NCBI GenBank assembly: GCA_034189805.1
Contig: JAXHUC010000042.1
Coordinates: forward strand, 8,726 to 22,010
Length of the DNA: 13,285 nucleotides
Direction: 5' to 3'
Source of the DNA: Cyanobacteriota bacterium
GTDB lineage: Bacteria > Cyanobacteriota > Cyanobacteriia > Cyanobacteriales > Geitlerinemataceae
Part shown: positions 3,726-13,285 of the stretch, one piece after another
Numbering within the stretch: position 1 is the stretch's first letter
Layout: every line of letters starts with the position of its first letter
Notes under the pieces: model-generated
Told to the model about the DNA's origin: nothing
Databases searched by the model: none
Seen by the model: only the letters and a program-made list of their open reading frames with translations
Program-made: the position numbers and the translations under genes

Positions 3726-5009
3726 TCAACTCTCACTCGGATTTAAATTATTCTGACTGTTTCGATCTTCAGTTAACCAATCCATTAATCGATCGGAATT
3801 TTCAAATTCAAACATAGCCTTTCCAAGTTGTTCGAGCTGGTCGATCGGTAAGTTTTGAATTTGCTCTTCAATCGGAACCTCCAAACGACCGAATCGATGT
3901 TCGATTTGACCGATGAGTAACCGTTCCAATCCCTGACGAAAGCCCGTTTGAAATAGCCATTTTTCTAGATCGGCATCATTTTCAAAATCTAATAAGGCTT
4001 CGCTGAGTCCTTCAAGTTGTTCTAAAGATAAGTCACGAACTTGCTTTTCTAAGTTAGGACTGATGCTACCAAAACGATGCTTGAGCTGTCGCAAAACCGT
4101 GACGACAATTCCCAAGCCGATGCCCTGTTCGATGCCTTGTTCGATGCCTTGCTGAATGCCTTGAGCGATGCCCTGTTCGATGCCTTTTTCCATCCAACTC
4201 GTGACGATATCCATAATTCCTCTCCGTTCTTGTAATTGAAGTCGATCGAGTTCCGATTCAAAAATTTGTTCTTCAACTAAATTTAAAGGTAAATACGTAT
4301 CGATCAGTTTAGAAATAAGCTGCGATCGCTCGAACTTTAATCCTAAAGAAGCCAACAATCGCAAACATTCCACCTTAACCCTCGGACGCTCCTCCAGTTT
4401 CATTTGCATTTTTCCCATGAATGCCGCAGCAACGGGATTGGGCTGTTGGCGAAATTCTTGCCAATGCAATCGCGGTAAAGAAATCGAGACGAAGCTGAAT
4501 TCTAATACCTGGCGATCGGGAAACTTCACGCGATATCCATTGGTTTCTGAGGGGCGATCGCCCTCCTCTAAAAAGACGACAATCGGGTAAATGGGAATTC
4601 CATACCGGCGATCGAGTTCGACGACATCGTGAAACATCCGCCTGGCTAACCCCGTTCGATCGCTCAGATGATGTTCGACGCGAATGAAAAAGCAAGTCTG
4701 GCGATCTCGCAATCGCACTCGTGCCAGAAAATCCGTCTCATCCAATCGAGCGGCGACAGTACGACCGAACTCCTCGGGTTCCACAAAGGCGATCGACTCA
4801 CGATCGACTTCCCCCACTAAATGGGGTAAAAATAAAGCGATAAAGTCCCAGAAAAAGATAGATAGTAACTCATTGAGTAGGCGATCGCGTCCCTGACGTT
4901 GATTCAATCGATCTCTCCTTAGATGTAGACGATCCTCAAGGTAATTTTGCATGGGTCGGACATCCGGGCCAAACGCTCTCAACCTCGGGTTTTCCAAACC
5001 AACATTCAA
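3726..5009 (-). CDS. Rpn/YhgA-like PD-(D/E)XK (putative transposase-like nuclease) N-terminal region fused to two tandem DUF4351 modules
   Basis: The N-terminal half has the ...DFLARV...FFIRVEHH...RRMFHDVVELDRRYGIPIYPIVVFL pattern typical of cyanobacterial Rpn-family proteins. A (QGIE)n linker follows. Then come two homologous ~48-aa modules: VLRQLKHRFG...LSLEQLEGLSEALLDFENDADLEKWL (3954-4097) and LIGQIEHRFG...LPIDQLEQLGKAMFEFENSDRLMDWL (3774-3917), which match the DUF4351 signature. The start is uncertain: ATG 5009 or the in-frame ATG at 4952, with no clear SD at either. Confidence 0.7.
   Translation of the reverse strand: MNVGLENPRLRAFGPDVRPMQNYLEDRLHLRRDRLNQRQGRDRLLNELLSIFFWDFIALFLPHLVGEVDRESIAFVEPEEFGRTVAARLDETDFLARVRLRDRQTCFFIRVEHHLSDRTGLARRMFHDVVELDRRYGIPIYPIVVFLEEGDRPSETNGYRVKFPDRQVLEFSFVSISLPRLHWQEFRQQPNPVAAAFMGKMQMKLEERPRVKVECLRLLASLGLKFERSQLISKLIDTYLPLNLVEEQIFESELDRLQLQERRGIMDIVTSWMEKGIEQGIAQGIQQGIEQGIEQGIGLGIVVTVLRQLKHRFGSISPNLEKQVRDLSLEQLEGLSEALLDFENDADLEKWLFQTGFRQGLERLLIGQIEHRFGRLEVPIEEQIQNLPIDQLEQLGKAMFEFENSDRLMDWLTEDRNSQNNLNPSES
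4119..4190. repeat. In-frame 12-bp tandem repeat (6 units, GATGCCYTGYTC-like) encoding (E/Q)QGI repeats within the Rpn-like CDS
   Basis: Read directly: gatgccctgttc gatgccttgttc gatgccttgctg aatgccttgagc gatgccctgttc gatgcctttttc. On the - strand this encodes EKGIEQGIAQGIQQGIEQGIEQGI. Confidence 0.85.
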
Positions 5010-5021
5010 GCATAACCTAGA

Positions 5022-5148
5022 TGGGGATGTTCGGGGAGAGGGGGAGATGGGAGGACGCGGAGACGCGGAGAGGGGGGAAACGGAGGCAGGGGGAGAAACG
5101 GGAGAAACGGAGGCAGGGGGGGAAACGGGAGAAACGGGAGAATTGAGA
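5022..5148. repeat. Purine/G-rich tandem repeat tract in a divergent intergenic region
   Basis: The + strand is almost all G/A. It holds G-runs at 5023-5026, 5033-5036, 5040-5044 and 5049-5051. GGAGACGC-type octamers (approx 5052-5070) share GACGCGGAGAGGGGG with 8035-8049. Two 27-nt units, GAAACGGAGGCAGGGGG(A/G)GAAACGGGA (5077-5103 and 5104-5130), differ at 1 nt, and a partial third unit follows. Confidence 0.85.
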
Positions 5149-5264: not shown

Positions 5265-8003
5265 ATGCAGCCTTACCGTCACCGCGATCGAACAGCCTGG
5301 ATTAGAGGTAAATTCTCGACCCTTCACGTTTGGATCGCTTCGTTTGCGATCGGTTTGCTATTCGTCTTGGGTTGGGGACTGTGGGTTCCAGCAGTTGGAG
5401 TTTCACCGGAGTGGTTAGGACATCGCCTCGAACAAGCTGTCTCCGTCGTCGAATCTGCTAGCGAATCTGCTGGCGAACCTTCACTGATGCAACAAGGTCT
5501 CGAACGCTATCATGCCGGGGATTGGCAAGGGGCGATCGAACTTTGGGAAAGCGCATTAGCCGAGGCCCCCGACGATGCTGTGGAACTGCTGAAATACTTA
5601 GCCCGCGCCTATCAAAAAGTGGGTCGGATCGATCGAGCCATTACCTATTTCGAGCGGGCGATCGCCAGCTACCGTCAAGCGGGAGAGTTTGCCCAGGTCG
5701 GACGCATTCTTACCGAACAGGCCCAAGCCTATAGTAGTTTGGGTCAGCACCAACGGGCGATCGCGATTTTGTGTGCGGAGTCTGCCGATCTCGATTGCCA
5801 ACCCGATAGCGCCATCGGTTTGGCCCGTGGGAGTGAGGATAAGTTGGGGATGGCTGCGGCTTTGGGTAGTTTGGGAAATACCTACGGGTTGCAAGGCAAG
5901 TATCCTCGGGCGATCGAGTATTTAGAAGCTAGTTTAGCCGTCGCACGGGACGCGGGGGCGCAACATTATATTCTCGCGGCACTCAACAGTTTGGGCAACG
6001 TATACGGCGGTTTGGCGAAGCGGGATTATCGTTACGCTCAATTTGCCCGTCAGGCGGCTGACGACGCAGCATTGCAAACGTTTCAAGACAATGCCCGAAA
6101 TTACGATCGCCTTGCGGTGGAATATTTTGAAGAGGCGATCGATTTAGCGGTGACTCTAGACGATGGGTTTGCTCGGGTGCGATCGCAACTCAACTCGATC
6201 CTCCCCTTGCTGCGATCGCAAACGGCCCAGACATCGGTCCAAGCCAGTCAGATTCTCGATCGGGCGCGCGTCACTCTCGACTCATTACCCGATTCCCGCG
6301 AAAAAGCCTACGCCACGATTAAGCTTGCCAGTTTTCTGCAACGGGTTCGAGCGCCTGACAGTCTTGTGGAAGGGATTCCCCTGTCTCAATGTCTCGATGC
6401 TGCCATTCCCAGCGAGGAAATTACCTTACTTGAAAAAGCCGTTTCCATTGCCCGCCACATTCGCGATCGGCAAGCGGAATCCTTTGCCCTGGGTCGGTTG
6501 GGTCACGTTTACGAATGTCGCCAAGAACCGGAAATTGCCCTGAATTTGACCCACCAAGCCCAACTCTACGCTATAACTCCCGACAGCCTGTACCTTTGGG
6601 AATGGCAAGCCGGCCGCCTGTTGGCCCAAATCGGCAAACCTCTCGAGGCGATCGAAGCTTACGAGCGATCGGTGGCCACCCTTAAAGGAATTCGGGGGGA
6701 TATGGCGCGAGCGGGACGCGAATTTCAACTCGACTTTCGCGATACTGTCGAGCCAGTGTACCGGGAGTTGACCCAACTGAGGCTGGAACGGGCAGATCGG
6801 GCGAGTGCCGAAGCCGAGGTACAAGCCAATCTCGAAGCGGCCGTCAATGCCCTCGACGAGTTGCGATTGGCGGAATTGCAGGATTATTTGGGGGATGAGT
6901 GCGAAATTCTCGATCGCGATCGGGGAACGCTCCCCTTAGATCGGCATACGGCGTTGTTGAGTTCGGTAATTTTTGCCGATCGCATTGCCGTTATCTTGAC
7001 GCGACCGGATGGCGAAGAAGGGTTTCGCTGGCAGCTTCATTGGGTGCGGGTGAATCGCCAAGAGGCGATCGAGATCGTCAACGACTTTCGCTTCAAACTC
7101 GAAAAGCGCTCCGATCTGGCCCATCGCTATCGAGACCGCGCCCAAGAGTTATACGATTGGTTGATTCGTCCCTTTGCCGAAGATTTAGCCGCCGCCGAGA
7201 TTACGACGTTGGTGTTTTTGCACGATGGCATCTTGCGCAGCATCCCGATGGCCGCTCTCTACGACGGCGAACGGTTTGCGATCGAGCAATACGCCATCGG
7301 CAATACACCCACCCTTTCCCTGGATGCTACGGAACCGTTGAGTTCCGAAAACCTGCAAATTTTGGCTTTTGGCTTAACACAACCCTCGGCGATCGAACCG
7401 CAAATCTTTTTTCCCCCTTTGGAAAACGTCCAGTCGGAAATCGAAGGCTTAAAACAGATCGTTCCTGGCAGTACCGGGTTGCTCGACGCAGAGTTTACCC
7501 TCGCCCGCCTCGAACGCGAACTCAACGAACGCGCCTACCCCGTATTGCATCTGGCCACCCACGCGCAGTTCGGCATCGACTCTCGCAAAACCTTTCTGGT
7601 GACGGGGGAGGTGAACCGGGAAAACGGGCAGGCTTATAACAAACCGCTGACCCTCAATCGACTCTACCAACTCATCCAGAGTACGGAAAATCGCGATCGC
7701 CCCTTGGAATTACTGACGCTCACCGCTTGCGAAACCGCCGTAGGAAGCGATCGCGATGCCCTGGGAATTGCTGGGGTTGCCTTGCAAGCCGGGGCGAGAA
7801 GCGCGTTGGCGACCCTGTGGCAAGTAGACGATCGCACCACGGCCGAAACCATCGTCCGCTTCTACCAATACCTGCGAGACGGGAAAAGCAAAGCCGAAGC
7901 CCTCCAAGCGACGCAAAAAGAATGGCTGAGCGATCGTACTTCCCGACGATATCGCCATCCCGGTTATTGGGCCCCGTTTGTTTCGATCGGGAATTGGCAG
8001 TAG
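5265..8003 (+). CDS. Membrane-anchored TPR-repeat / CHAT-domain (caspase-like clan CD) protease, 912 aa
   Basis: A basic N-terminus is followed by a hydrophobic helix, FSTLHVWIASFAIGLLFVLGWGLWVPAVGV (5313-5402). TPR-like repeats follow (WQGAIELWESAL..., YLARAYQKVGRIDRAITYFERAI..., LGSLGNTYGLQGKYPRAIEYLEASL..., LNSLGNVYGGL...). The C-terminal CHAT domain has the His in VLHLATHAQFG (codon 7560-7562) and the Cys in LLTLTACETAVG (codon 7728-7730), then ALATLWQVDD and HPGYWAPF, which are typical CHAT C-terminal motifs. Confidence 0.88.
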   Translation: MQPYRHRDRTAWIRGKFSTLHVWIASFAIGLLFVLGWGLWVPAVGVSPEWLGHRLEQAVSVVESASESAGEPSLMQQGLERYHAGDWQGAIELWESALAEAPDDAVELLKYLARAYQKVGRIDRAITYFERAIASYRQAGEFAQVGRILTEQAQAYSSLGQHQRAIAILCAESADLDCQPDSAIGLARGSEDKLGMAAALGSLGNTYGLQGKYPRAIEYLEASLAVARDAGAQHYILAALNSLGNVYGGLAKRDYRYAQFARQAADDAALQTFQDNARNYDRLAVEYFEEAIDLAVTLDDGFARVRSQLNSILPLLRSQTAQTSVQASQILDRARVTLDSLPDSREKAYATIKLASFLQRVRAPDSLVEGIPLSQCLDAAIPSEEITLLEKAVSIARHIRDRQAESFALGRLGHVYECRQEPEIALNLTHQAQLYAITPDSLYLWEWQAGRLLAQIGKPLEAIEAYERSVATLKGIRGDMARAGREFQLDFRDTVEPVYRELTQLRLERADRASAEAEVQANLEAAVNALDELRLAELQDYLGDECEILDRDRGTLPLDRHTALLSSVIFADRIAVILTRPDGEEGFRWQLHWVRVNRQEAIEIVNDFRFKLEKRSDLAHRYRDRAQELYDWLIRPFAEDLAAAEITTLVFLHDGILRSIPMAALYDGERFAIEQYAIGNTPTLSLDATEPLSSENLQILAFGLTQPSAIEPQIFFPPLENVQSEIEGLKQIVPGSTGLLDAEFTLARLERELNERAYPVLHLATHAQFGIDSRKTFLVTGEVNRENGQAYNKPLTLNRLYQLIQSTENRDRPLELLTLTACETAVGSDRDALGIAGVALQAGARSALATLWQVDDRTTAETIVRFYQYLRDGKSKAEALQATQKEWLSDRTSRRYRHPGYWAPFVSIGNWQ

Positions 8004-8005
8004 CT

Positions 8006-8072
8006 GGGGGACGCGGGGACGCGGGGACGCGGGGACGCGGAGAGGGGGAGGTGAGGGAGGTGAGGGAGGTGG
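8006..8072. repeat. G-rich short tandem repeats: (GGGGACGC)x4 (8007-8038) then (GGGAGGTGA)x3 (8046-8072); G-quadruplex consensus on the + strand
   Basis: Read directly. It starts 3 nt after the CHAT stop codon. G-runs of at least 4 lie at 8006-8010, 8015-8018, 8023-8026 and 8031-8034, separated by ACGC loops. Confidence 0.9.
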
Positions 8073-8125
8073 GGGAGAGTGAATGCAAAATTAAAAATTA
8101 AAAATTAAAAATGCAAAATTCTCCC
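8071..8125. repeat. A-rich intergenic element, copy 2 (one extra AAAAATT unit)
   Basis: GGGGGAGAGTGA-ATGCAAAATT(8083-8092)-AAAAATTAAAAATTAAAA-ATGCAAAATT(8111-8120)-CTCCC. GGGAGA (8073-8078) and TCTCCC (8120-8125) are inverted. It lies between the convergent CHAT and GH108 genes. Confidence 0.8.
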
Positions 8126-9824: not shown

Positions 9825-9843
9825 AAATTAAAAATGCAAAATT
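9812..9843. repeat. A-rich intergenic element, copy 3 (right half only), overlapping the methyltransferase stop codon
   Basis: AATT(AAAAATT)x2 AAAA-ATGCAAAATT (9834-9843). The last codons ATT AAA AAT TAA (9813-9824) lie inside the repeat. Confidence 0.7.
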
Positions 9844-9875
9844 AGTCAGGATTCGGGTTCCGTTTTAGATCCTGC

Positions 9876-9895
9876 TGGGGTAACAATCGGTAGGA
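9876..9895. repeat. Second copy of the 20-nt sequence that immediately precedes the CHAT start codon
   Basis: TGGGGTAACAATCGGTAGGA (9876-9895) vs TGGGGTAACAATCAATAGGA (5245-5264): 18 of 20 identical. Confidence 0.7.
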
Positions 9896-9930
9896 GCGGG
9901 TATGAGATTTAAATTTTGGGCAAGTCTCCT

Positions 9931-10170
9931 AAGATTTTGCTAAACCCGCCCTTACATCATTTTTCTTCGTATATGATACCTAAATATTTACCAATATTAT
10001 ACTTGATTTATGTTGATATTTTGATGGGTAAATTAAGAAAATTTTAGAAAAACCTTTCATTTCAAAATAGTGATTCACTACTTACCTTATAGAAATAAAA
10101 AAAGTGATTATAGCGTTTCTCAAATGGGTGAAGTATGACCAATGTAGGGGCGGGTTTAGCTAAAAATCTT
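9931..10170. mobile_element. MITE-like 240-bp insert: 26/28-nt terminal inverted repeats around an AT-rich core. Alternative reading: two adjacent copies of a dispersed GGGCGGGTTT hairpin repeat
   Basis: The left end is AAGATTTTGCTAAACCCGCCCTTACA (9931-9956). The reverse complement of the right end (10143-10170) is AAGATTTTTAGCTAAACCCGCCCCTACA. They differ by one 2-nt indel and one mismatch. The core (9957-10142) is conspicuously A+T-rich compared with the rest of the window and has no ORF of 60 aa or more. I see no obvious target-site duplication. Confidence 0.4.
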
Positions 10171-10204
10171 ACTATCACTGAGATTTGGAAATCAAAACCC
10201 GCCC
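10148..10204. repeat. Palindromic hairpin repeat: GGGCGGGTTT (10148-10157) / AAACCCGCCC (10195-10204), with inner pair AAATCT (10164-10169) / AGATTT (10181-10186)
   Basis: The pairing was read directly. A degenerate relative lies at 9893-9953 (GAGCGGGT...ACCCGCCC). GGGCGGGTTT...AAACCCGCCC hairpins resemble small dispersed repeats that I recall from filamentous cyanobacterial genomes. Confidence 0.6.
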
Positions 10205-10268
10205 TCGATTATGTACCTCGTTCAAGAGAGAATCGCTATATTTGAATAATTTGATTATTTTAGGGGGA

Positions 10269-10321
10269 GGTGGGCAGTTTTTTTAGAATATGAATAGGTT
10301 TGAGTAACTGAACTGCCCACC
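10269..10321 (-). terminator. Perfect 11-bp stem (GGTGGGCAGTT / AACTGCCCACC) with a 31-nt loop, just downstream of the 58-aa ORF; possible terminator or processing hairpin
   Basis: The arms lie at 10269-10279 and 10311-10321. The hairpin begins 7 nt after the TAA (10328-10330) of the - strand mini-ORF. There is no U-run after the stem on the - strand, so it is not a canonical intrinsic terminator. Confidence 0.3.
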
Positions 10322-10327
10322 CTACAA

Positions 10328-10504
10328 TTAGGACGATCGCATTTCCTCCTCCTCGGATTTCAAAAAGCTCCAGGCGAAGATAAAAGCGGAAATCAGCCAT
10401 GCAATGGGACTGGAAATAATGCCAATTTCAATCAGGGTAGCTAGGGTAAATTGGCTGGCGAGAATAATTTGCTTGCGGGTGCGTTTTTTGTCGATGAGTT
10501 GCAT
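10328..10504 (-). CDS. Small (58 aa) predicted membrane protein, below the ORF-track size cutoff
   Basis: Hand translation: MQLIDKKRTRKQIILASQFTLATLIEIGIISSPIAWLISAFIFAWSFLKSEEEEMRSS. It has a basic N-terminus, a ~35-residue hydrophobic core and an acidic tail. An in-frame TAA 33 nt upstream of the ATG means it cannot extend. No obvious SD. It is divergent from the STAND gene. Confidence 0.4.
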   Translation of the reverse strand: MQLIDKKRTRKQIILASQFTLATLIEIGIISSPIAWLISAFIFAWSFLKSEEEEMRSS

Positions 10505-10580
10505 TTGACTGTTGCGTTTTGGTTGGACATTTTTACGTTAGAAAATGGCAACCGCTCGCCTAGATCGAGTATGAGTTAGC

Positions 10581-10616
10581 TACAATCCAGTTAATGTCCA
10601 AGTTGCGTCCAACTTG
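10581..10616 (+). promoter_or_regulatory. Candidate -10 box TACAAT (10581-10586) followed by the perfect inverted repeat CAAGTTG-cgtc-CAACTTG (10599-10616); possible operator or leader hairpin of the HTH-STAND gene
   Basis: Read directly. It lies 42-59 nt upstream of the ATG at 10658, in the 153-bp divergent control region. No convincing -35. Confidence 0.3.
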
Positions 10617-10657
10617 CGATCGGGTGCATCATATAAAAAGTTCTCTGAAACAGCGGT

Positions 10658-13285
10658 ATGGCAGGCAACGCATCACGATCGCTCCAAGTTTCTCCAGAAA
10701 AGTTTCCCCTCATCGAAAAAGCACTGTTGCAATTTCCCTCAAAACGGGATTTGGCAGCGCAGTTGGGAATGTCGCCGAACACCGTTACCAATTTTTTTAA
10801 AGGTCGAAACGTACAACGTCAGAAGTTTCACCGGATTTGTAAAAAGCTCAAAGTGGACTGGCGGGAAGTTGCGGGGATTGCGGAAGTCGAGGAGAAAGAC
10901 AATTCGCAACCAGAGGCTACCCCAGAAACTCCCCTAGAAACAGAACCGATTCGGCAGATACCCCACAATATCCCCAGGGAAGGGAAGGCGGGATTTTTCG
11001 GACGGGAGGAGGAACTGGGGGAGTTGCGGCGACGGTTGCGCGAGGAGAAACAAGTTGCGATCGCAGCCGTTGCCGGAATGGGGGGTATGGGGAAAACGGA
11101 ACTCGCCGTTCGCTACGCACGCAAGTATCTTTCGGTATATCCCGGTGGGGTGTGCTGGATTGACTGTCGGGGAATCCCTGGGTTGCAAATCGTCGATTGG
11201 GTACGGGAAAAGTACCAGCTTGCACCACACGAAGAGTCTCAGTTGTCAGCACGGGAGGATTTGGCAGCACGAGTGCGATGGTGTTGGGACTACTTAGCCA
11301 GCCTCCCCACTCTGGTGGTTTTCGATGATGTCAGCCATTACTCGCAGCAGGTGGCGCAATATTTGCCGACGGATTCACTTCAAACCGGGGGAATTGAGGT
11401 GCTGCTGACGACGCGGTTGGATTTGGGAATCGAGCAGTTGTCGTTGAACGAGTTGCAGCCTCTGGCGGCGTTGGAGTTGCTGCGGGAAGTTTCGGTAAAG
11501 CAGGAGAAGGGGCAACTCGCGGGGATAGAACGGTTGGCGTGCGATGTGGCAACTCGGCAAGATGATGCCTCGGCGCTGTGCGAGTGGTTGGGATATTTGC
11601 CTTTGGGGTTGGAGTTAGCAGGGCGGTATTTGGCGCGGCAATCGGATTTGTCGTTTGGGAAGATGCTGGCGCGGTTGCAGAAGAAGGGGTTGGCGCACAA
11701 GGCGCTGATGGGGGATGAAACCACCGACCCCACTTGGACGCTAGCGGCAAAACGGGGAGTGGCAGCCGCGTTTGAGTTGAGTTGGGAAGGGTTGGATGAG
11801 AAAGCAAGAGTGCTGGGGTGTCAGTTGAGTTTGTACGCACCAGTGCGGTTGGGGTTTCTCTCTCGTGAAGTGTTAGAGGAGTGGCTGGAGGATGAAGATG
11901 CGGCAGAAGACTGGGTAGAGGCGAGAGGGGAACTGGAGAAACACCATTTGCTGCAAGCCGAAGATGGGGGATATCGGTTCCATCCCCTGATTCGGGAGTT
12001 TTTTGCCCTCAAGCGAGGAGAATATCCGGAGGCGGAGGAGTGGCAGCAGCAATTTATCGCGCAGATGGTGGCAGTGGCACGGAAAATTCCCGAGACACCG
12101 ACGCGAGCGGAGATTCAAAGCCTGGAACCGCAGATTCCTCATTTGGTGGAGGTGGCAGAGCGGTGGGTGGGGGAAGTTGACGATGAGGATGTGATTACGC
12201 TATTCACGCGGCTAGGTCGGTTTTATCAAGGTCAGGGATTCTACTCCCTCGCCGAACCTTGGTATAAAACTTGCCGAGATATGGTTTGCAAACGTCTGGG
12301 AAACAACCACCCCGATGTCGCCACCTCCCTCAACAACCTCGCCTCACTCTACTTTTCCCAAGGGCGGTACGAAGATGCCGAACCCCTTTACCTAGATGCC
12401 CTGGCACTGCGACGAAAACTCCTGGGAGAGAACCACCCCGATGTCGCCACCTCCCTCAACAACCTCGCCTCACTCTACTTTTCCCAAGGGCGGTACGAAG
12501 AAGCCGAACCCCTCCACCAAGATGCCCTGGCACTGCGACGAAAACTCCTGGGAGAGAACCACCCCGATGTCGCCACCTCCCTCAACAACCTCGCCTCACT
12601 CTACTTTTCCCAAGGGCGGTACGAAGAAGCCGAACCCCTTTACCAAGATGCCCTGACACTGATACGAAAACTCCTGGGAAACGAGCATCCCCATGTCGCC
12701 ACCTCCCTCAACAACCTCGCCTACCTCTACTCTTCCCAAGGGCGGTACGAAGATGCCGAACCCCTTTACCTAGATGCCCTGGCACTGCGACGAAAACTCC
12801 TCGGAGACAACCACCCCGATGTCGCCTCCTCCCTCAACAACCTCGCCGGACTCTACTCTTCCCAAGGGCGGTACGAGGATGCCGAACCCCTTTTACAAGA
12901 TGCCCTGGCACTGCGACGAGAACTCCTCGGGGACAACCATCCCGATGTCGCCTCCTCCCTCAACAACCTCGCCGAACTTTACCGTTCTCAAGGGCGGTAC
13001 GAGGATGCCGAACCCCTTTTACAAGATGCCCTGGCACTGTGGCGAAAACTCCTGGGAGAAGACCACCCCCATGTCGCCTCCTCCCTCAACAACCTCGCTG
13101 AACTCTACCGTTGCCAAGGGCGGTACGAAGATGCCGAACCCCTTTACCTAGATGCCCTGACACTGGTACGAAAACTCCTGGGAAACGAGCATCCCCATGT
13201 CGCCACCTCCCTCAACAACCTCGCCGGACTCTACAAATCCCAAGGGCGGTACGAAGATGCCGAACCCCTTTACCTAGATGCCCTG
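10658..13285 (+). CDS. HTH - NB-ARC (STAND/AP-ATPase) - TPR protein, NLR-like; 3' end lies beyond the window (876 codons visible)
   Basis: Absent from the supplied track because it has no stop in the window. Hand translation of + frame 2 gives TGA at 10646-10648, the first ATG at 10658, then an open frame to 13285. Motifs: HTH-like KRDLAAQLGMSPNTVTNFFKG (10742-10804); FFGREEELGELRRRL; P-loop GMGGMGKT (11075-11098); Walker B LVVFDDV (11312-11332); LLTTR (11402-11416); GYLPLGLE (11591-11614); FHPLIREF at the MHD-like position (11978-12001). Then come one degenerate and at least 8 canonical kinesin-light-chain-type TPRs (LGxxHPxVAxSLNNLAxLYxSQGRYExAEPLxxDALxLxRKL). Confidence 0.9.
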   Translation, partial: MAGNASRSLQVSPEKFPLIEKALLQFPSKRDLAAQLGMSPNTVTNFFKGRNVQRQKFHRICKKLKVDWREVAGIAEVEEKDNSQPEATPETPLETEPIRQIPHNIPREGKAGFFGREEELGELRRRLREEKQVAIAAVAGMGGMGKTELAVRYARKYLSVYPGGVCWIDCRGIPGLQIVDWVREKYQLAPHEESQLSAREDLAARVRWCWDYLASLPTLVVFDDVSHYSQQVAQYLPTDSLQTGGIEVLLTTRLDLGIEQLSLNELQPLAALELLREVSVKQEKGQLAGIERLACDVATRQDDASALCEWLGYLPLGLELAGRYLARQSDLSFGKMLARLQKKGLAHKALMGDETTDPTWTLAAKRGVAAAFELSWEGLDEKARVLGCQLSLYAPVRLGFLSREVLEEWLEDEDAAEDWVEARGELEKHHLLQAEDGGYRFHPLIREFFALKRGEYPEAEEWQQQFIAQMVAVARKIPETPTRAEIQSLEPQIPHLVEVAERWVGEVDDEDVITLFTRLGRFYQGQGFYSLAEPWYKTCRDMVCKRLGNNHPDVATSLNNLASLYFSQGRYEDAEPLYLDALALRRKLLGENHPDVATSLNNLASLYFSQGRYEEAEPLHQDALALRRKLLGENHPDVATSLNNLASLYFSQGRYEEAEPLYQDALTLIRKLLGNEHPHVATSLNNLAYLYSSQGRYEDAEPLYLDALALRRKLLGDNHPDVASSLNNLAGLYSSQGRYEDAEPLLQDALALRRELLGDNHPDVASSLNNLAELYRSQGRYEDAEPLLQDALALWRKLLGEDHPHVASSLNNLAELYRCQGRYEDAEPLYLDALTLVRKLLGNEHPHVATSLNNLAGLYKSQGRYEDAEPLYLDAL
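12296..13285 (+). repeat. Tandem array of 126-bp (42-codon) TPR-encoding units, 7 complete plus 1 partial, continuing past the window
   Basis: Unit boundaries are 12296, 12422, 12548, 12674, 12800, 12926, 13052 and 13178. Units 1-3 differ at 5-6 of 126 nt (counted by eye). The stretch 12394-12513 recurs perfectly at 12520-12639. Confidence 0.95.

Follow-up and report, generated by a model that had tools for sequence, protein, structure and literature searches.

What does a run of nearly identical tetratricopeptide repeats (TPRs) at the end of a cyanobacterial gene do, and how have its units become so alike while a few positions in them differ? Such a run closes the window, i.e., the whole 13,285-nt stretch of DNA analyzed here. 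The original prediction saw in it a fast-evolving surface for ligand recognition. Our analysis supports this as far as it is testable, through the NLR-type host protein, the homogenization of the units, a site-specific excess of amino-acid change and the alignment of the changing sites with a ligand-binding groove. We consider the array to be the C-terminal sensor of an NLR-like STAND protein of an uncultured cyanobacterium, composed of an XRE-type helix-turn-helix (HTH), an NB-ARC and 42-residue TPRs of the kinesin light chain (KLC) type, and we give this whole explanation a probability of about 0.65. The coordinates of the features are collected in Table 1.

Table 1. Features of the array-bearing gene in the window (positions count from the first base of the window)
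Feature	Position	Strand	Basis or remark
HTH / NB-ARC / TPR (NLR-like STAND) partial CDS	10658..13285	+	876 codons, stop-free
XRE/Cro-C1-type helix-turn-helix, aa 28-70, presumed output module	10739..10867	+	Pfam, PDB profile search
NB-ARC NTPase core, aa 117-299	11006..11554	+	Pfam E=7.6e-9, 35.6 bits (cut-off 23.5)
Walker A GMGGMGKT, aa 140-147	11075-11098	+	NB-ARC motif
Walker B LVVFDD, aa 219-224	11312-11329	+	NB-ARC motif
Sensor-1 (TTR) LLTTR, aa 249-253	11402-11416	+	NB-ARC motif
GLPL-like GYLPLGL, aa 312-318	11591-11611	+	downstream of Pfam NB-ARC core
MHD-like FHPLI, aa 441-445	11978-11992	+	downstream of Pfam NB-ARC core
Degenerate N-terminal capping TPR, aa 505-546, ahead of the homogeneous array	12170..12295	+	model, Pfam
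TPR array: 7 full 126-nt (42-codon) units and an 8th truncated to 108 nt where the sequence stops	12296..13285	+	TRF, unit table, Pfam
Exact 120-nt direct duplication, one unit apart	12394..12639 (12394-12513 = 12520-12639)	+	longest exact repeat
Last 48 nt of the window, identical copy at 12356-12403	13238..13285	+	assembly stops here

The reading frame around the array is open from position 10649 up to the window end; an ATG lies at 10658. Its product is identical over 876 aa to the protein P0001 (NCBI MDY6938282.1), which is recorded as 'MAG: tetratricopeptide repeat protein, partial [Cyanobacteriota bacterium]' and comes from a 46,367-nt contig. This 'partial' protein stops at exactly base 13285. 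Therefore, the contig most likely ends within the array, which bears out the assembly hazard that had been foreseen. The array described earlier as eight consecutive 42-codon units is there, its last unit is incomplete, and eight is a lower bound for the unit number.

The gene has the tripartite layout of an NLR, with the HTH followed by the NB-ARC (aa 117-299 onward) and by TPRs from aa 505 to the end. When the N-terminus was scanned alone, it matched HTH_3 (25.1 bits; cut-off 23) and HTH_26 (23.1 bits; cut-off 22), and both models matched all six of the homologous N-termini. A PDB profile search with the N-terminus gave weak matches, mainly to helix-turn-helix DNA-binding proteins, among them HipB and other XRE-type regulators (E 0.015-0.04). 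The motif set of the NB-ARC (AP-ATPase) clade is complete in the protein, from Walker A, Walker B and sensor-1 to the GLPL and MHD-type motifs. The capping TPR, at whose first residue (aa 505) the Pfam TPR_NPHP3 match begins, was modeled by AlphaFold2 with helices at residues 5-21 and 25-43 preceding the first regular unit, and its sequence type is common to the window gene, its sister gene and the Nostoc orthologues. The flanking genes are housekeeping or unrelated (RNase E/G, RNase HII, methyltransferase), except for a TPR-CHAT gene 2.6 kb upstream. An Rfam scan of the AT-rich spacer and of the whole window returned no RNA element, and no upstream partner gene with a Bell domain or an amyloid motif was found. 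In relatives, the NB-ARC-TPR chassis carries varied N-termini, i.e., HTH, EAD4, CHAT or none. Such interchangeable N-termini are typical of conflict-system NLRs. Split pairs, in which the HTH-NB-ARC and the TPRs are separate genes, occur naturally in Microcoleus and related genomes.

The array itself is highly regular. TRF reported a single array at 12296-13285 with a period of 126, 7.9 copies, 90% matches, 0% indels and a score of 1497, in frame with the host ORF; the unit sequence is absent elsewhere in the window. Neighboring units differ as predicted at only 5 to 6 nt (six between units 1 and 2, five between units 2 and 3), and units 1 and 3 differ at seven. The perfect 120-nt repeat was likewise confirmed and is the most recent duplication or conversion tract. 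Amino-acid identity averages 87% among units 1-4 (168 aa) and 82% among all seven units, compared with the >85% over at least 100 residues used by Dyrka et al. 2014, whose exact procedure differs from our identity measure. Among 113 homologues (median 76%), the array takes 18th place in internal identity.

Each unit was modeled with a helix A at positions 6-21 and a helix B at 25-43 (position 43 being the first of the following unit), i.e., helices of 16 and 19 residues, and the pLDDT of the AlphaFold2 model of the TPRs was 93.3. The helix-packing residues L12, L15, A16, Y19, A28, A35 and L36 and a ladder of Asn13/Asn14 form a nearly invariant scaffold. Pfam TPR_10 and TPR_12 match the array with E values down to 1e-162, and nine stretches align to TPR_10 over positions 1-42 of 42. 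The period without indels, the extended helices A and B and the LNNLA...Y..QG.Y..A pattern are those of 42-residue KLC-type TPRs (42PR definition: PMC5642895). Two further readings of the repeat pattern were rejected. Alternative-frame ORFs within the array (12271-13101, 12396-12656 and 12774-13151) are by-products of the repeat and not genes. A four-unit higher-order period was also discarded, as a distance of 504 nt does not make units systematically more similar; only a junction block, which holds a 59-nt exact repeat, is common to units 3/4 and 7/8.

How did the units become so alike? The closest orthologue, sister gene L001, is 77-81% identical to the window gene in the non-repeat part, with 54-83% identity among its own units. 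The window units are 85-96% alike at the nucleotide level and were therefore amplified or homogenized recently. Correspondingly, pS is 0.11 within the array versus 0.42-0.71 to other genes, and the units are more alike within the array than between orthologues, the pattern by which Dyrka et al. 2014 recognized concerted evolution. Every window unit is closest to unit 3 or 4 of the sister gene, and 32 of the 105 informative site pairs within the array fail the four-gamete test. These observations agree with the predicted shuffling by unequal recombination: the units go back to one or two ancestral units, from which within-array unequal recombination or gene conversion recently generated or homogenized them.

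A search of proteins, GTDB species genomes, JGI metagenome contigs and protein clusters yielded no second copy of the window gene and no relative above 67% identity. Since no second allele was found, rapid change of the window array is something that we infer, from within-array and between-species sequence comparisons, rather than observe. P0002 and P0122, two near-identical versions of the sister gene, do not differ within the array; their 2 aa differences both lie outside it and are therefore uninformative on array variation. In the wider family, a distant homologue (37-38% identity) has four syntenic orthologues in Nostoc, with 3, 5, 5 and 9 units between identical caps.

The differences between units had been called mostly nonsynonymous. 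This holds by count; over the whole unit, however, pN and pS are nearly the same (0.109 and 0.105), and the signal lies in the clustering of the changes. At least 22 amino-acid changes fall within 13 of the 42 codons (P=0.008), and three codons carry at least three changes each (P=0.011). The residue sets given in the original prediction for positions 3-4, 7, 17, 20, 32-33 and 39 are all correct, and five further variable codons had been missed, namely 10 (T/S), 21 (S/C), 27 (D/E), 37 (A/T) and 41 (K/E). In the window, the eight predicted codons show a pN of 0.427 and a pS of 0.146, and the remaining 34 a pN/pS of 0.24.

The per-site comparison proposed at the outset was extended to eight other homogenized cyanobacterial arrays, including those of three finished genomes (Nostoc punctiforme PCC 73102, Anabaenopsis NIES-21 and Nostoc HK-01), and came out in favor of selection. 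The same eight window-defined codons gave a pN/pS of 1.9-4.8 in each of these arrays, and the remaining 34 codons 0.26-0.68. Codons 7, 10, 17, 20, 21 and 39 had values of 2-5 with bootstrap lower bounds above 1, all of these ratios being pairwise Nei-Gojobori counts on recombining, non-independent units and not estimates from a recombination-aware codon model. Across 107 homologues, within-protein variability peaks at positions 7, 10, 17, 20 and 39 and follows the window pattern (Spearman 0.71, p=1.4e-7). Positions 3-4, 27, 33, 37 and 41 vary in the window but are without family-wide selection; the helical wheel places 27, 37 and 41 on the outer face.

Where do the selected positions lie on the repeat? 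The KLC1 residues that contact JIP1 and TorsinA peptides (PMC6214655) align to unit positions 10, 13, 14, 17, 18, 20, 21, 25 and 39. Five of the six selected codons (10, 17, 20, 21 and 39, but not 7) are among them (P=0.0008), the groove being assigned by alignment to human KLC1 and an ideal helical wheel and not from model coordinates. Furthermore, the canonical concave TPR positions 2, 9, 12 and 13 (PMC1261162) correspond to unit positions 10, 17, 20 and 21 in the Pfam TPR_1 register. Amino-acid change is thus concentrated on a stripe of helix A (7, 10, 17, 20 and 21) and an inward stripe of helix B (32 and 39), where 7 and 32 are placed by the helical wheel and the others by KLC1 contacts. 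The wheel-derived outer face of helix B (26, 27, 30, 34, 37, 38 and 41) is not hypervariable, and its mean pN/pS is 0.63 versus 4.1 at the selected sites, so exposure alone is an unlikely explanation. The variable positions had been expected to face the concave side. By the alignment, this applies to 10, 17, 20, 21 and 39. Positions 3-4 and 33 are variable in the window and not family-wide. Positive selection on the concave face, as described by Dyrka et al. 2014, is therefore found here by pairwise counts and alignment-based mapping.

The likeness to KLC extends beyond the contact positions. The top Foldseek matches of the model are KLC1 and KLC2 TPR domains, in several cases complexed with cargo, and the array shares 40-50% sequence identity with KLC TPRs in a gapless 42-residue register (best sequence match E=1e-62). 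KLC1/KLC2 (PDB 3nf1, 3zfw, 6fuz and 6swu) are thus the best match in both sequence and fold, with the same Asn ladder and groove geometry. In contrast to the window protein, KLC is a eukaryotic motor adaptor with six diverged repeats in fixed number and without an NTPase. By analogy, the likeness is likely to tell the manner in which the groove binds peptides, and not the function of the bacterial protein.

An ordinary STAND transcription regulator of the MalT, AfsR or GutR kind, sensing an endogenous metabolite or partner, is the alternative that survives best, and we regard it as unlikely. The near-identical units would then be a neutral by-product of duplication and conversion, and the variable sites merely tolerant. 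A whole-unit pN/pS of about 1 suits such tolerance, but relaxed constraint cannot raise pN above pS, as seen at six codons across the eight other arrays; nor does it explain why the helix-B outer face stays at about 0.6 or why the selected codons coincide with ligand-contact positions. Like MalT, AfsR and GutR, the window protein does join a STAND NTPase to a DNA-binding domain and a TPR-like sensor, and its NB-ARC is generically similar to AfsR. However, the 105 bits scored against the AfsR model are far under the family cut-off of 1430, the HTH is of the XRE/Cro type where theirs is LuxR or SARP, and their sensors are not made of near-identical units. Membership in the AfsR/MalT-type regulator family was therefore rejected. 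The largely housekeeping neighbors and the lack of any defense-system model match would also suit an ordinary regulator, whereas the EAD4 and CHAT modules on the same chassis in relatives would not.

A very improbable alternative is that the array is a structural or oligomerization scaffold without a specific ligand, whose near-consensus units were selected for stability and whose variable sites are irrelevant surface. Consensus-like 42-residue TPRs are indeed stable solenoids, and PDB 4y6c and 4y6w (Podospora 42PR) are among the matches; the near invariance of the scaffold positions is in keeping with this as well. Selection for protein stability, however, leaves the identity at synonymous sites unexplained, as it does the confinement of pN/pS above 1 to groove positions, and the Asn13/Asn14 ladder aligns with the asparagine pairs by which KLC1 hydrogen-bonds the main chain of cargo peptides. 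Least probable of all is an artifact in which a short-read metagenome assembler collapsed or chimerized a more divergent array, or reads of several strains or paralogues: the sequence is a MAG whose contig most likely stops in the array, within 48 nt that recur there, and related loci are troubled in their arrays too (L005 and L006 break off inside them, N runs interrupt L004 and L009, and L014 has a frame change), but the frame is intact over 990 nt without indels, the longest exact repeat would be below the maximum k-mers that metagenome assemblers commonly use, which exceed 120 nt, equally homogeneous arrays exist in finished genomes (nine units in Nostoc punctiforme PCC 73102, and Anabaenopsis circularis NIES-21), and random chimerism would not yield variable positions that agree with 107 other proteins.

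Under the preferred reading as an NLR-like sensor, the backbone-binding groove would be the same in every unit, whereas the side chains that it presents would differ from unit to unit. Whenever units are duplicated, deleted or converted, these side-chain sets would be reshuffled, so that the specificity of the groove for a peptide or protein ligand could shift rapidly. As in other STAND/NLR proteins, a bound ligand would be expected to free the NB-ARC switch and lead to nucleotide-dependent oligomerization. The HTH domains, clustered in this way, would then bind DNA, and the output would be a transcriptional response and not a nuclease, protease or pore. The closest analogue for this proposed output is offered by MalT, AfsR and GutR, in which ligand-controlled oligomerization switches transcription. 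The biological setting would most likely be non-self recognition (phage or other invaders); the HTH output also fits an ordinary signal-sensing regulator. Tentatively, the protein might be an immune-type NLR with direct transcriptional output, where the shuffled groove recognizes variable peptides of phages, invaders or neighboring cells, and the NB-ARC oligomer clusters XRE-type HTHs, thereby switching on a defense or cell-fate program.

Conserved repeats with a few hypervariable positions have, as the original prediction pointed out, been described in fungal NLRs and noted in filamentous bacteria. In the TPRs of fungal NLRs, strong conservation between repeats goes together with positive selection at a few groove positions and with polymorphism in repeat number (Dyrka et al. 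2014, PMC4986451). The window gene resembles them in having 42-residue KLC-type TPRs after an NB-ARC, unit identity above 80%, concerted evolution and positive selection at a few concave positions modeled on kinesin light chain; repeat-number polymorphism is seen here in Nostoc orthologues of the family. In contrast to them, its host is a cyanobacterium, an XRE-type HTH replaces the lipase-like, HeLo or prion-forming domain, and the gene is not known to belong to an allelic series or to cause incompatibility. In bacterial NLRs, TPR and WD repeats with 80-90% unit identity have been proposed to diversify rapidly (Dyrka et al. 2020, bioRxiv 10.1101/2020.01.06.895854). From multicellular cyanobacteria and actinobacteria, NLR-like proteins with NB-ARC and TPRs have also been described by Kaur et al. 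2020/2021 (PMC7159879, PMC8195603), and the function of such bacterial proteins is still given as unknown in the literature. The window protein shares their architecture and taxonomic setting, and its relatives bear EAD4 or CHAT; it differs in its HTH N-terminus and in being without an amyloid (BASS) motif and an adjacent Bell-domain gene.

Avs/AVAST and bNACHT proteins are STAND NTPases whose C-terminal TPR-like sensors bind phage proteins directly, whereupon they oligomerize and activate an N-terminal effector (PMC13581612). Avs sensors are long, irregular and shape-complementary to conserved phage folds, whereas that of the window protein consists of near-identical units, and in place of an HTH the Avs proteins carry enzymatic effectors such as nucleases and proteases. 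A PADLOC scan of aa 1-546 returned 0 families, i.e., no match to a catalogued anti-phage STAND protein. Two other candidates were also rejected. As an FxSxx-COOH TPR protein (NCBIfam NF040586), the truncated protein scored 286.8 bits against a cut-off of 300, and the 10.6 kb upstream contain no Fxs-type genes. Mutagenesis as in the target of a diversity-generating retroelement was dismissed because no reverse transcriptase was present among the window ORFs scanned and the variable codons show no adenine bias, using all four bases (e.g., TCA/TAC/GGA/GAA and CGA/ATA/TGG/GTA).

Since the pattern is already described in fungal NLRs and noted in bacterial ones, the locus does not represent a new kind of system. 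It is a clear bacterial instance of what has been documented best for fungi, namely NLR sensors of near-identical repeats with shuffling and selection in the groove. Furthermore, it provides concrete, testable specificity positions (7, 10, 17, 20, 21 and 39) for cyanobacterial 42-residue TPR sensors, and within the same family unit number varies between syntenic Nostoc orthologues of a distant homologue. Near-identical arrays break short-read assemblies, unit counts from MAGs are untrustworthy, and the window gene is annotated as partial. If the immune-type reading is true, the protein would take a shortcut from receptor to promoter that is not described for the characterized bacterial NLR/Avs systems, and the split HTH-NB-ARC and TPR gene pairs of Microcoleus and its relatives would be swappable sensor cassettes.

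By Tandem Repeats Finder, positions 12296-13285 form a single strong array with a score of 1497: 7.9 copies of a 126-nt period, with 90% matches and free of indels. The array sits within an ORF that has no stop between 10649 and the window end. The most likely start of this NLR-like gene is the ATG at 10658. The original prediction of eight consecutive 42-codon TPR units holds for seven complete units, the eighth having 36 codons only. The near identity of the 126-bp units, with differences at a few codons, was confirmed by this search and by unit comparison; the seven full units differ pairwise at 5 to 19 of 126 nt. The 5-6 differences given for the neighbours among units 1-3 were found between units 1 and 2 (6) and units 2 and 3 (5); units 1 and 3 differ at 7 nt. 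The perfect 120-nt repeat (12394-12513 and 12520-12639) is real and is also the longest exact repeat, and the residue alternatives given for each variable position were all correct. Besides the eight codons singled out there (3-4, 7, 17, 20, 32-33 and 39), codons 10, 21, 27, 37 and 41 are variable too, and seven more carry synonymous changes only. No copy of the unit sequence was found elsewhere in the window; the last 48 nt of the array have a copy elsewhere within it. Within 11001-13000, GC skew is +0.32 across the NB-ARC region and drops to -0.18 across the array, probably because the repeated unit uses C-rich codons and not through any replication feature.

All 876 translated residues match those of NCBI record MDY6938282.1, a tetratricopeptide repeat protein deposited as partial, which lies on a 46,367-nt contig. 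The final base of the window is exactly where the deposited protein stops, so the contig almost certainly ends there too, with the assembly breaking inside the array. Therefore, the count of eight units is a lower bound (the array has at least 8) and the C-terminal cap is missing. Similar trouble is common in the arrays of the related loci examined: two contigs end there, two arrays contain N runs and one changes frame. These oddities, together with the mixed array of L010 (Table), look like array turnover combined with assembly difficulty, and the warning that such a repeat array is an assembly hazard was justified. At the other end of the protein, the HTH_3 and HTH_26 families found in the window gene were also matched by six of six homologous N-termini.

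Features of the window and of homologous loci (L numbers)
Feature	Locus	Position	Strand	Details
XRE/Cro-type helix-turn-helix	window gene	aa 28-70		HTH_3 and HTH_26 above Pfam cut-offs, N-terminus scanned alone
NB-ARC NTPase	window gene			Walker A, Walker B, TTR, GLPL-like and MHD-like motifs
Degenerate capping TPR	window gene	directly before array
Upstream genes	window			RNase E/G, RNase HII, DUF4351 protein, TPR-CHAT protein, GH108 lysozyme-like protein, methyltransferase
DUF4351-containing protein	window	3726-5009	-	in-frame tandem repeat 12-nt x6 at 4118-4190
27/9-nt repeat	window	5073-5142		upstream of CHAT gene start
TPR-CHAT gene	window	5265-8003	+	912 aa; TPRs N-terminal, CHAT (caspase-like) C-terminal
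Three distinct short tandem repeats, back to back	window	8007-8120		right after CHAT gene stop; GGGGACGC x4.2, GGGAGGTGA x4, AAAATTA x4.9
AT-rich spacer	window	9825-10657		830 nt, GC about 0.42; upstream of NLR-like gene
Split homologue	L017	5893-7206 and 7211-8353		by coordinates also L011, L012, L031, L032
ORF ahead of module-less homologue	L055	942-1496
ORF ahead of module-less homologue	L056	773-1231
ORF ahead of module-less homologue	L057	922-1425
ORF ahead of module-less homologue	L059	991-1428
ORF ahead of module-less homologue	L060	1038-1496
Contig end within array	L005, L006
N runs within array	L004, L009
Frame shift within array	L014	7369-7494		1 nt
Mixed array	L010	7243-8376		three protein-identical units beside four diverged ones

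At 67% amino-acid identity, the closest relative is P0002 (locus L001), which shares the HTH / NB-ARC / TPR layout; its seven units are followed by a C-terminal tail. Outside the repeats, the two genes are 77-81% identical in nucleotide sequence; identity is 54-83% among the L001 units and 85-96% among the window units. Furthermore, the best match of every window unit is L001 unit 3 or 4, and synonymous divergence is 0.11 inside the window array vs 0.42-0.71 to the units of other genes. One or two units therefore gave rise to the window array, by amplification or homogenisation, after the split from the L001 lineage. All four gametes occur at 32 of 105 informative site pairs, and the unit 3/4 junction recurs four units further on, at units 7/8, with 59 nt repeated exactly. 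Such a mosaic is expected from unequal crossing-over or gene conversion; recurrent mutation at hypervariable codons also contributes to the mosaic. Mutagenesis by a DGR was excluded, there being no reverse transcriptase among the scanned window ORFs and no adenine bias.

For the 113 homologues in which three or more units were detectable, mean between-unit identity has a median of 76% and the window array (82%) ranks 18th, values biased upward somewhat by a unit-detection HMM built on the window's own units. The homogeneity of the window array is thus not unusual for the family, whose arrays fall into a recently homogenised group (pS below about 0.2) and an old, diverged one (pS 0.45-0.75). 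Four Nostoc species carry a syntenic orthologue, with an NB-ARC region 37-38% identical to the window protein; among themselves, the four loci are about 94% identical in NB-ARC where listed and 88-91% in the flanks. These orthologues contain 3, 5, 5 and 9 units, with N- and C-terminal caps common to all, which shows that unit number changes within the protein family, as seen in Nostoc and not in the window gene itself.

Measured as pairwise Nei-Gojobori counts, which here and below are indicative for recombining units and not a formal test, whole-unit pN (0.109) is about equal to pS (0.105) in the window. At least 22 amino-acid changes are nevertheless confined to 13 of the 42 codons (P=0.008), with four states each at codons 17, 20 and 39. 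The claim that changes are mostly nonsynonymous is true by count. For the eight codons originally chosen, pN is 0.427 vs pS 0.146, the other 34 having pN/pS 0.24, a contrast that is circular, as these codons were picked for their variability. The codon set was therefore tested on other data. Across 107 homologous cyanobacterial NB-ARC-TPR proteins, within-protein variability is highest at positions 7, 10, 17, 20 and 39, with smaller peaks at 21, 32, 37, 40 and 41, and the profile correlates with that of the window (Spearman 0.71, p=1.4e-7). At the DNA level, the out-of-sample set comprised eight other homogenised arrays, three of them from the finished genomes of Nostoc punctiforme PCC 73102, Anabaenopsis circularis NIES-21 and Nostoc sp. 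HK-01. The window-defined codon set had pN/pS of 1.9-4.8 in all eight, the remaining codons 0.26-0.68. Codon by codon, pN/pS was 2.2-5.1 at 7, 10, 17, 20, 21 and 39, with bootstrap lower bounds above 1. Of the original set, 7, 17, 20 and 39 were thus raised, 32 only mildly (1.5), and 3-4 and 33 not at all family-wide.

In the AlphaFold2 model of residues 505-876, which is confident (pLDDT 93.3), each unit has a loop (positions 2-5), helix A (6-21) and helix B (25-43). By structure, the model is most similar to TPR domains of kinesin light chain, several of which were determined in complex with cargo peptides, and the sequence alignment to KLC1 has no gaps across four repeats. Groove positions were assigned by homology to KLC1 and not from the model coordinates, using the KLC1 residues that contact JIP1 and TorsinA peptides (eLife structure paper, PMC6214655), with KLC1 numbering checked against 23 residues named in two papers. 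The contacts correspond to unit positions 10, 13, 14, 17, 18, 20, 21, 25 and 39. Positions 13 and 14 form an invariant Asn-Asn pair; in KLC1, the equivalent pair makes hydrogen bonds to the main chain of the peptide. Contact positions account for five of the six codons selected across the family (10, 17, 20, 21 and 39; hypergeometric P=0.0008) and, if only the window is considered, for 5 of its 13 variable codons (P=0.08). In the Pfam TPR_1 register, canonical position n equals unit position n+8, and unit positions 10, 17, 20 and 21 are canonical 2, 9, 12 and 13, described as concave, ligand-binding and hypervariable (Magliery and Regan, PMC1261162). An ideal helical wheel puts position 7 next to 14 and 21, and 32 between contact residues 25 and 39; 27, 37 and 41 occupy the opposite outer face and 33 the flank. 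In the window, outer-face and flank sites show binary changes only, mostly conservative (D/E, A/T, K/E; L/Q at 33), and groove sites three or four states of a radical kind (S/Y/G/E, F/S/R/K, R/I/W/V, Y/H/L). Solvent exposure by itself is unlikely to explain this pattern, because family-wide mean pN/pS is 0.63 at outer-face helix-B positions vs 4.1 at the selected sites.

If the protein were a housekeeping STAND transcription regulator whose repeats had been homogenised neutrally, the HTH and the genomic context would be explained, but pN > pS at contact positions would not. Were the array a pure stability scaffold, neither the synonymous-site identity nor the groove-specific variation would be accounted for. 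That the near identity is an assembly artefact is unlikely, as the reading frame is intact through the array, finished genomes hold equally homogeneous arrays and the positional pattern of variation is family-wide. The selection pattern and the KLC1 contact mapping suggest that the original reading of the array as a fast-evolving ligand-recognition surface is essentially right.

The TPR-CHAT gene is encoded on the strand of the NLR-like gene, 2.6 kb ahead of it, and CHAT occurs within the same polypeptide in some NB-ARC homologues (P0041, P0111). A functional link between the two genes is possible; operon structure gives it no support. The DUF4351 gene stretch is low in GC (0.43 vs about 0.55 elsewhere), and its protein has a weak PADLOC match to a 'putative invertase' model. 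The AT-rich spacer is presumably a regulatory region and holds no small partner ORF (none of at least 60 aa); an Rfam scan of the whole window gave no family match.

Among relatives, the NB-ARC-TPR chassis carries an XRE HTH, Effector-associated domain 4, CHAT or no N-terminal module; NLR-like conflict proteins are typically modular in this way. The homologue is split into two adjacent ORFs in Microcoleus and related genomes: the HTH-NB-ARC ORF ends (TAA) just past the MHD-like motif and a 380-aa TPR ORF begins 4 nt on. Therefore, NOD and sensor are separate neighbouring genes in these genomes. Homologues without an N-terminal module each have a 145-184 aa ORF ahead; those of L055, L056, L057, L059 and L060 are mutually homologous, begin with a hydrophobic helix (MVEPLTAAVIVSLFFSEA...) and may be a separately encoded Bell-like membrane effector. 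Some module-less loci are adjoined by ParDE, HicA and MazE toxin-antitoxin genes. No ORF of the kind that precedes these homologues was found in the window.

In the window gene, an NB-ARC switch and an HTH are attached to a recently homogenised solenoid, in which the scaffolds are identical and the groove-lining side chains vary between units. By analogy with STAND/NLR proteins and KLC-type TPRs, the groove would bind an extended peptide or protein surface, the Asn ladder gripping the ligand backbone and positions 7, 10, 17, 20, 21, 32 and 39 determining specificity; gain, loss and conversion of units would reshuffle the specificity sets. Ligand binding would free NB-ARC for nucleotide-dependent oligomerisation, and the HTH domains, once clustered, would bind DNA. 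No PADLOC defence-system model matched aa 1-546 of the window protein; considering the selection pattern and the conflict-system modules of the family, recognition of non-self is plausible.

Among described systems, the nearest are fungal NB-ARC/TPR NLRs whose repeats are highly conserved; repeat-number polymorphism and concave-face positive selection, modelled on KLC2, have been reported for them (PMC4986451). The literature thus agrees with the original prediction that near-identical repeats with few variable positions are known in fungal NLRs. It agrees likewise for bacteria, where TPR and WD repeats of NLRs are 80-90% identical internally and may diversify in the same way (Dyrka et al. 2020, bioRxiv 10.1101/2020.01.06.895854). 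In those structural and evolutionary features that could be examined, the window gene appears to conform to the fungal pattern. What it adds to that pattern is modest: an XRE-type HTH output and an explicit list of specificity positions.
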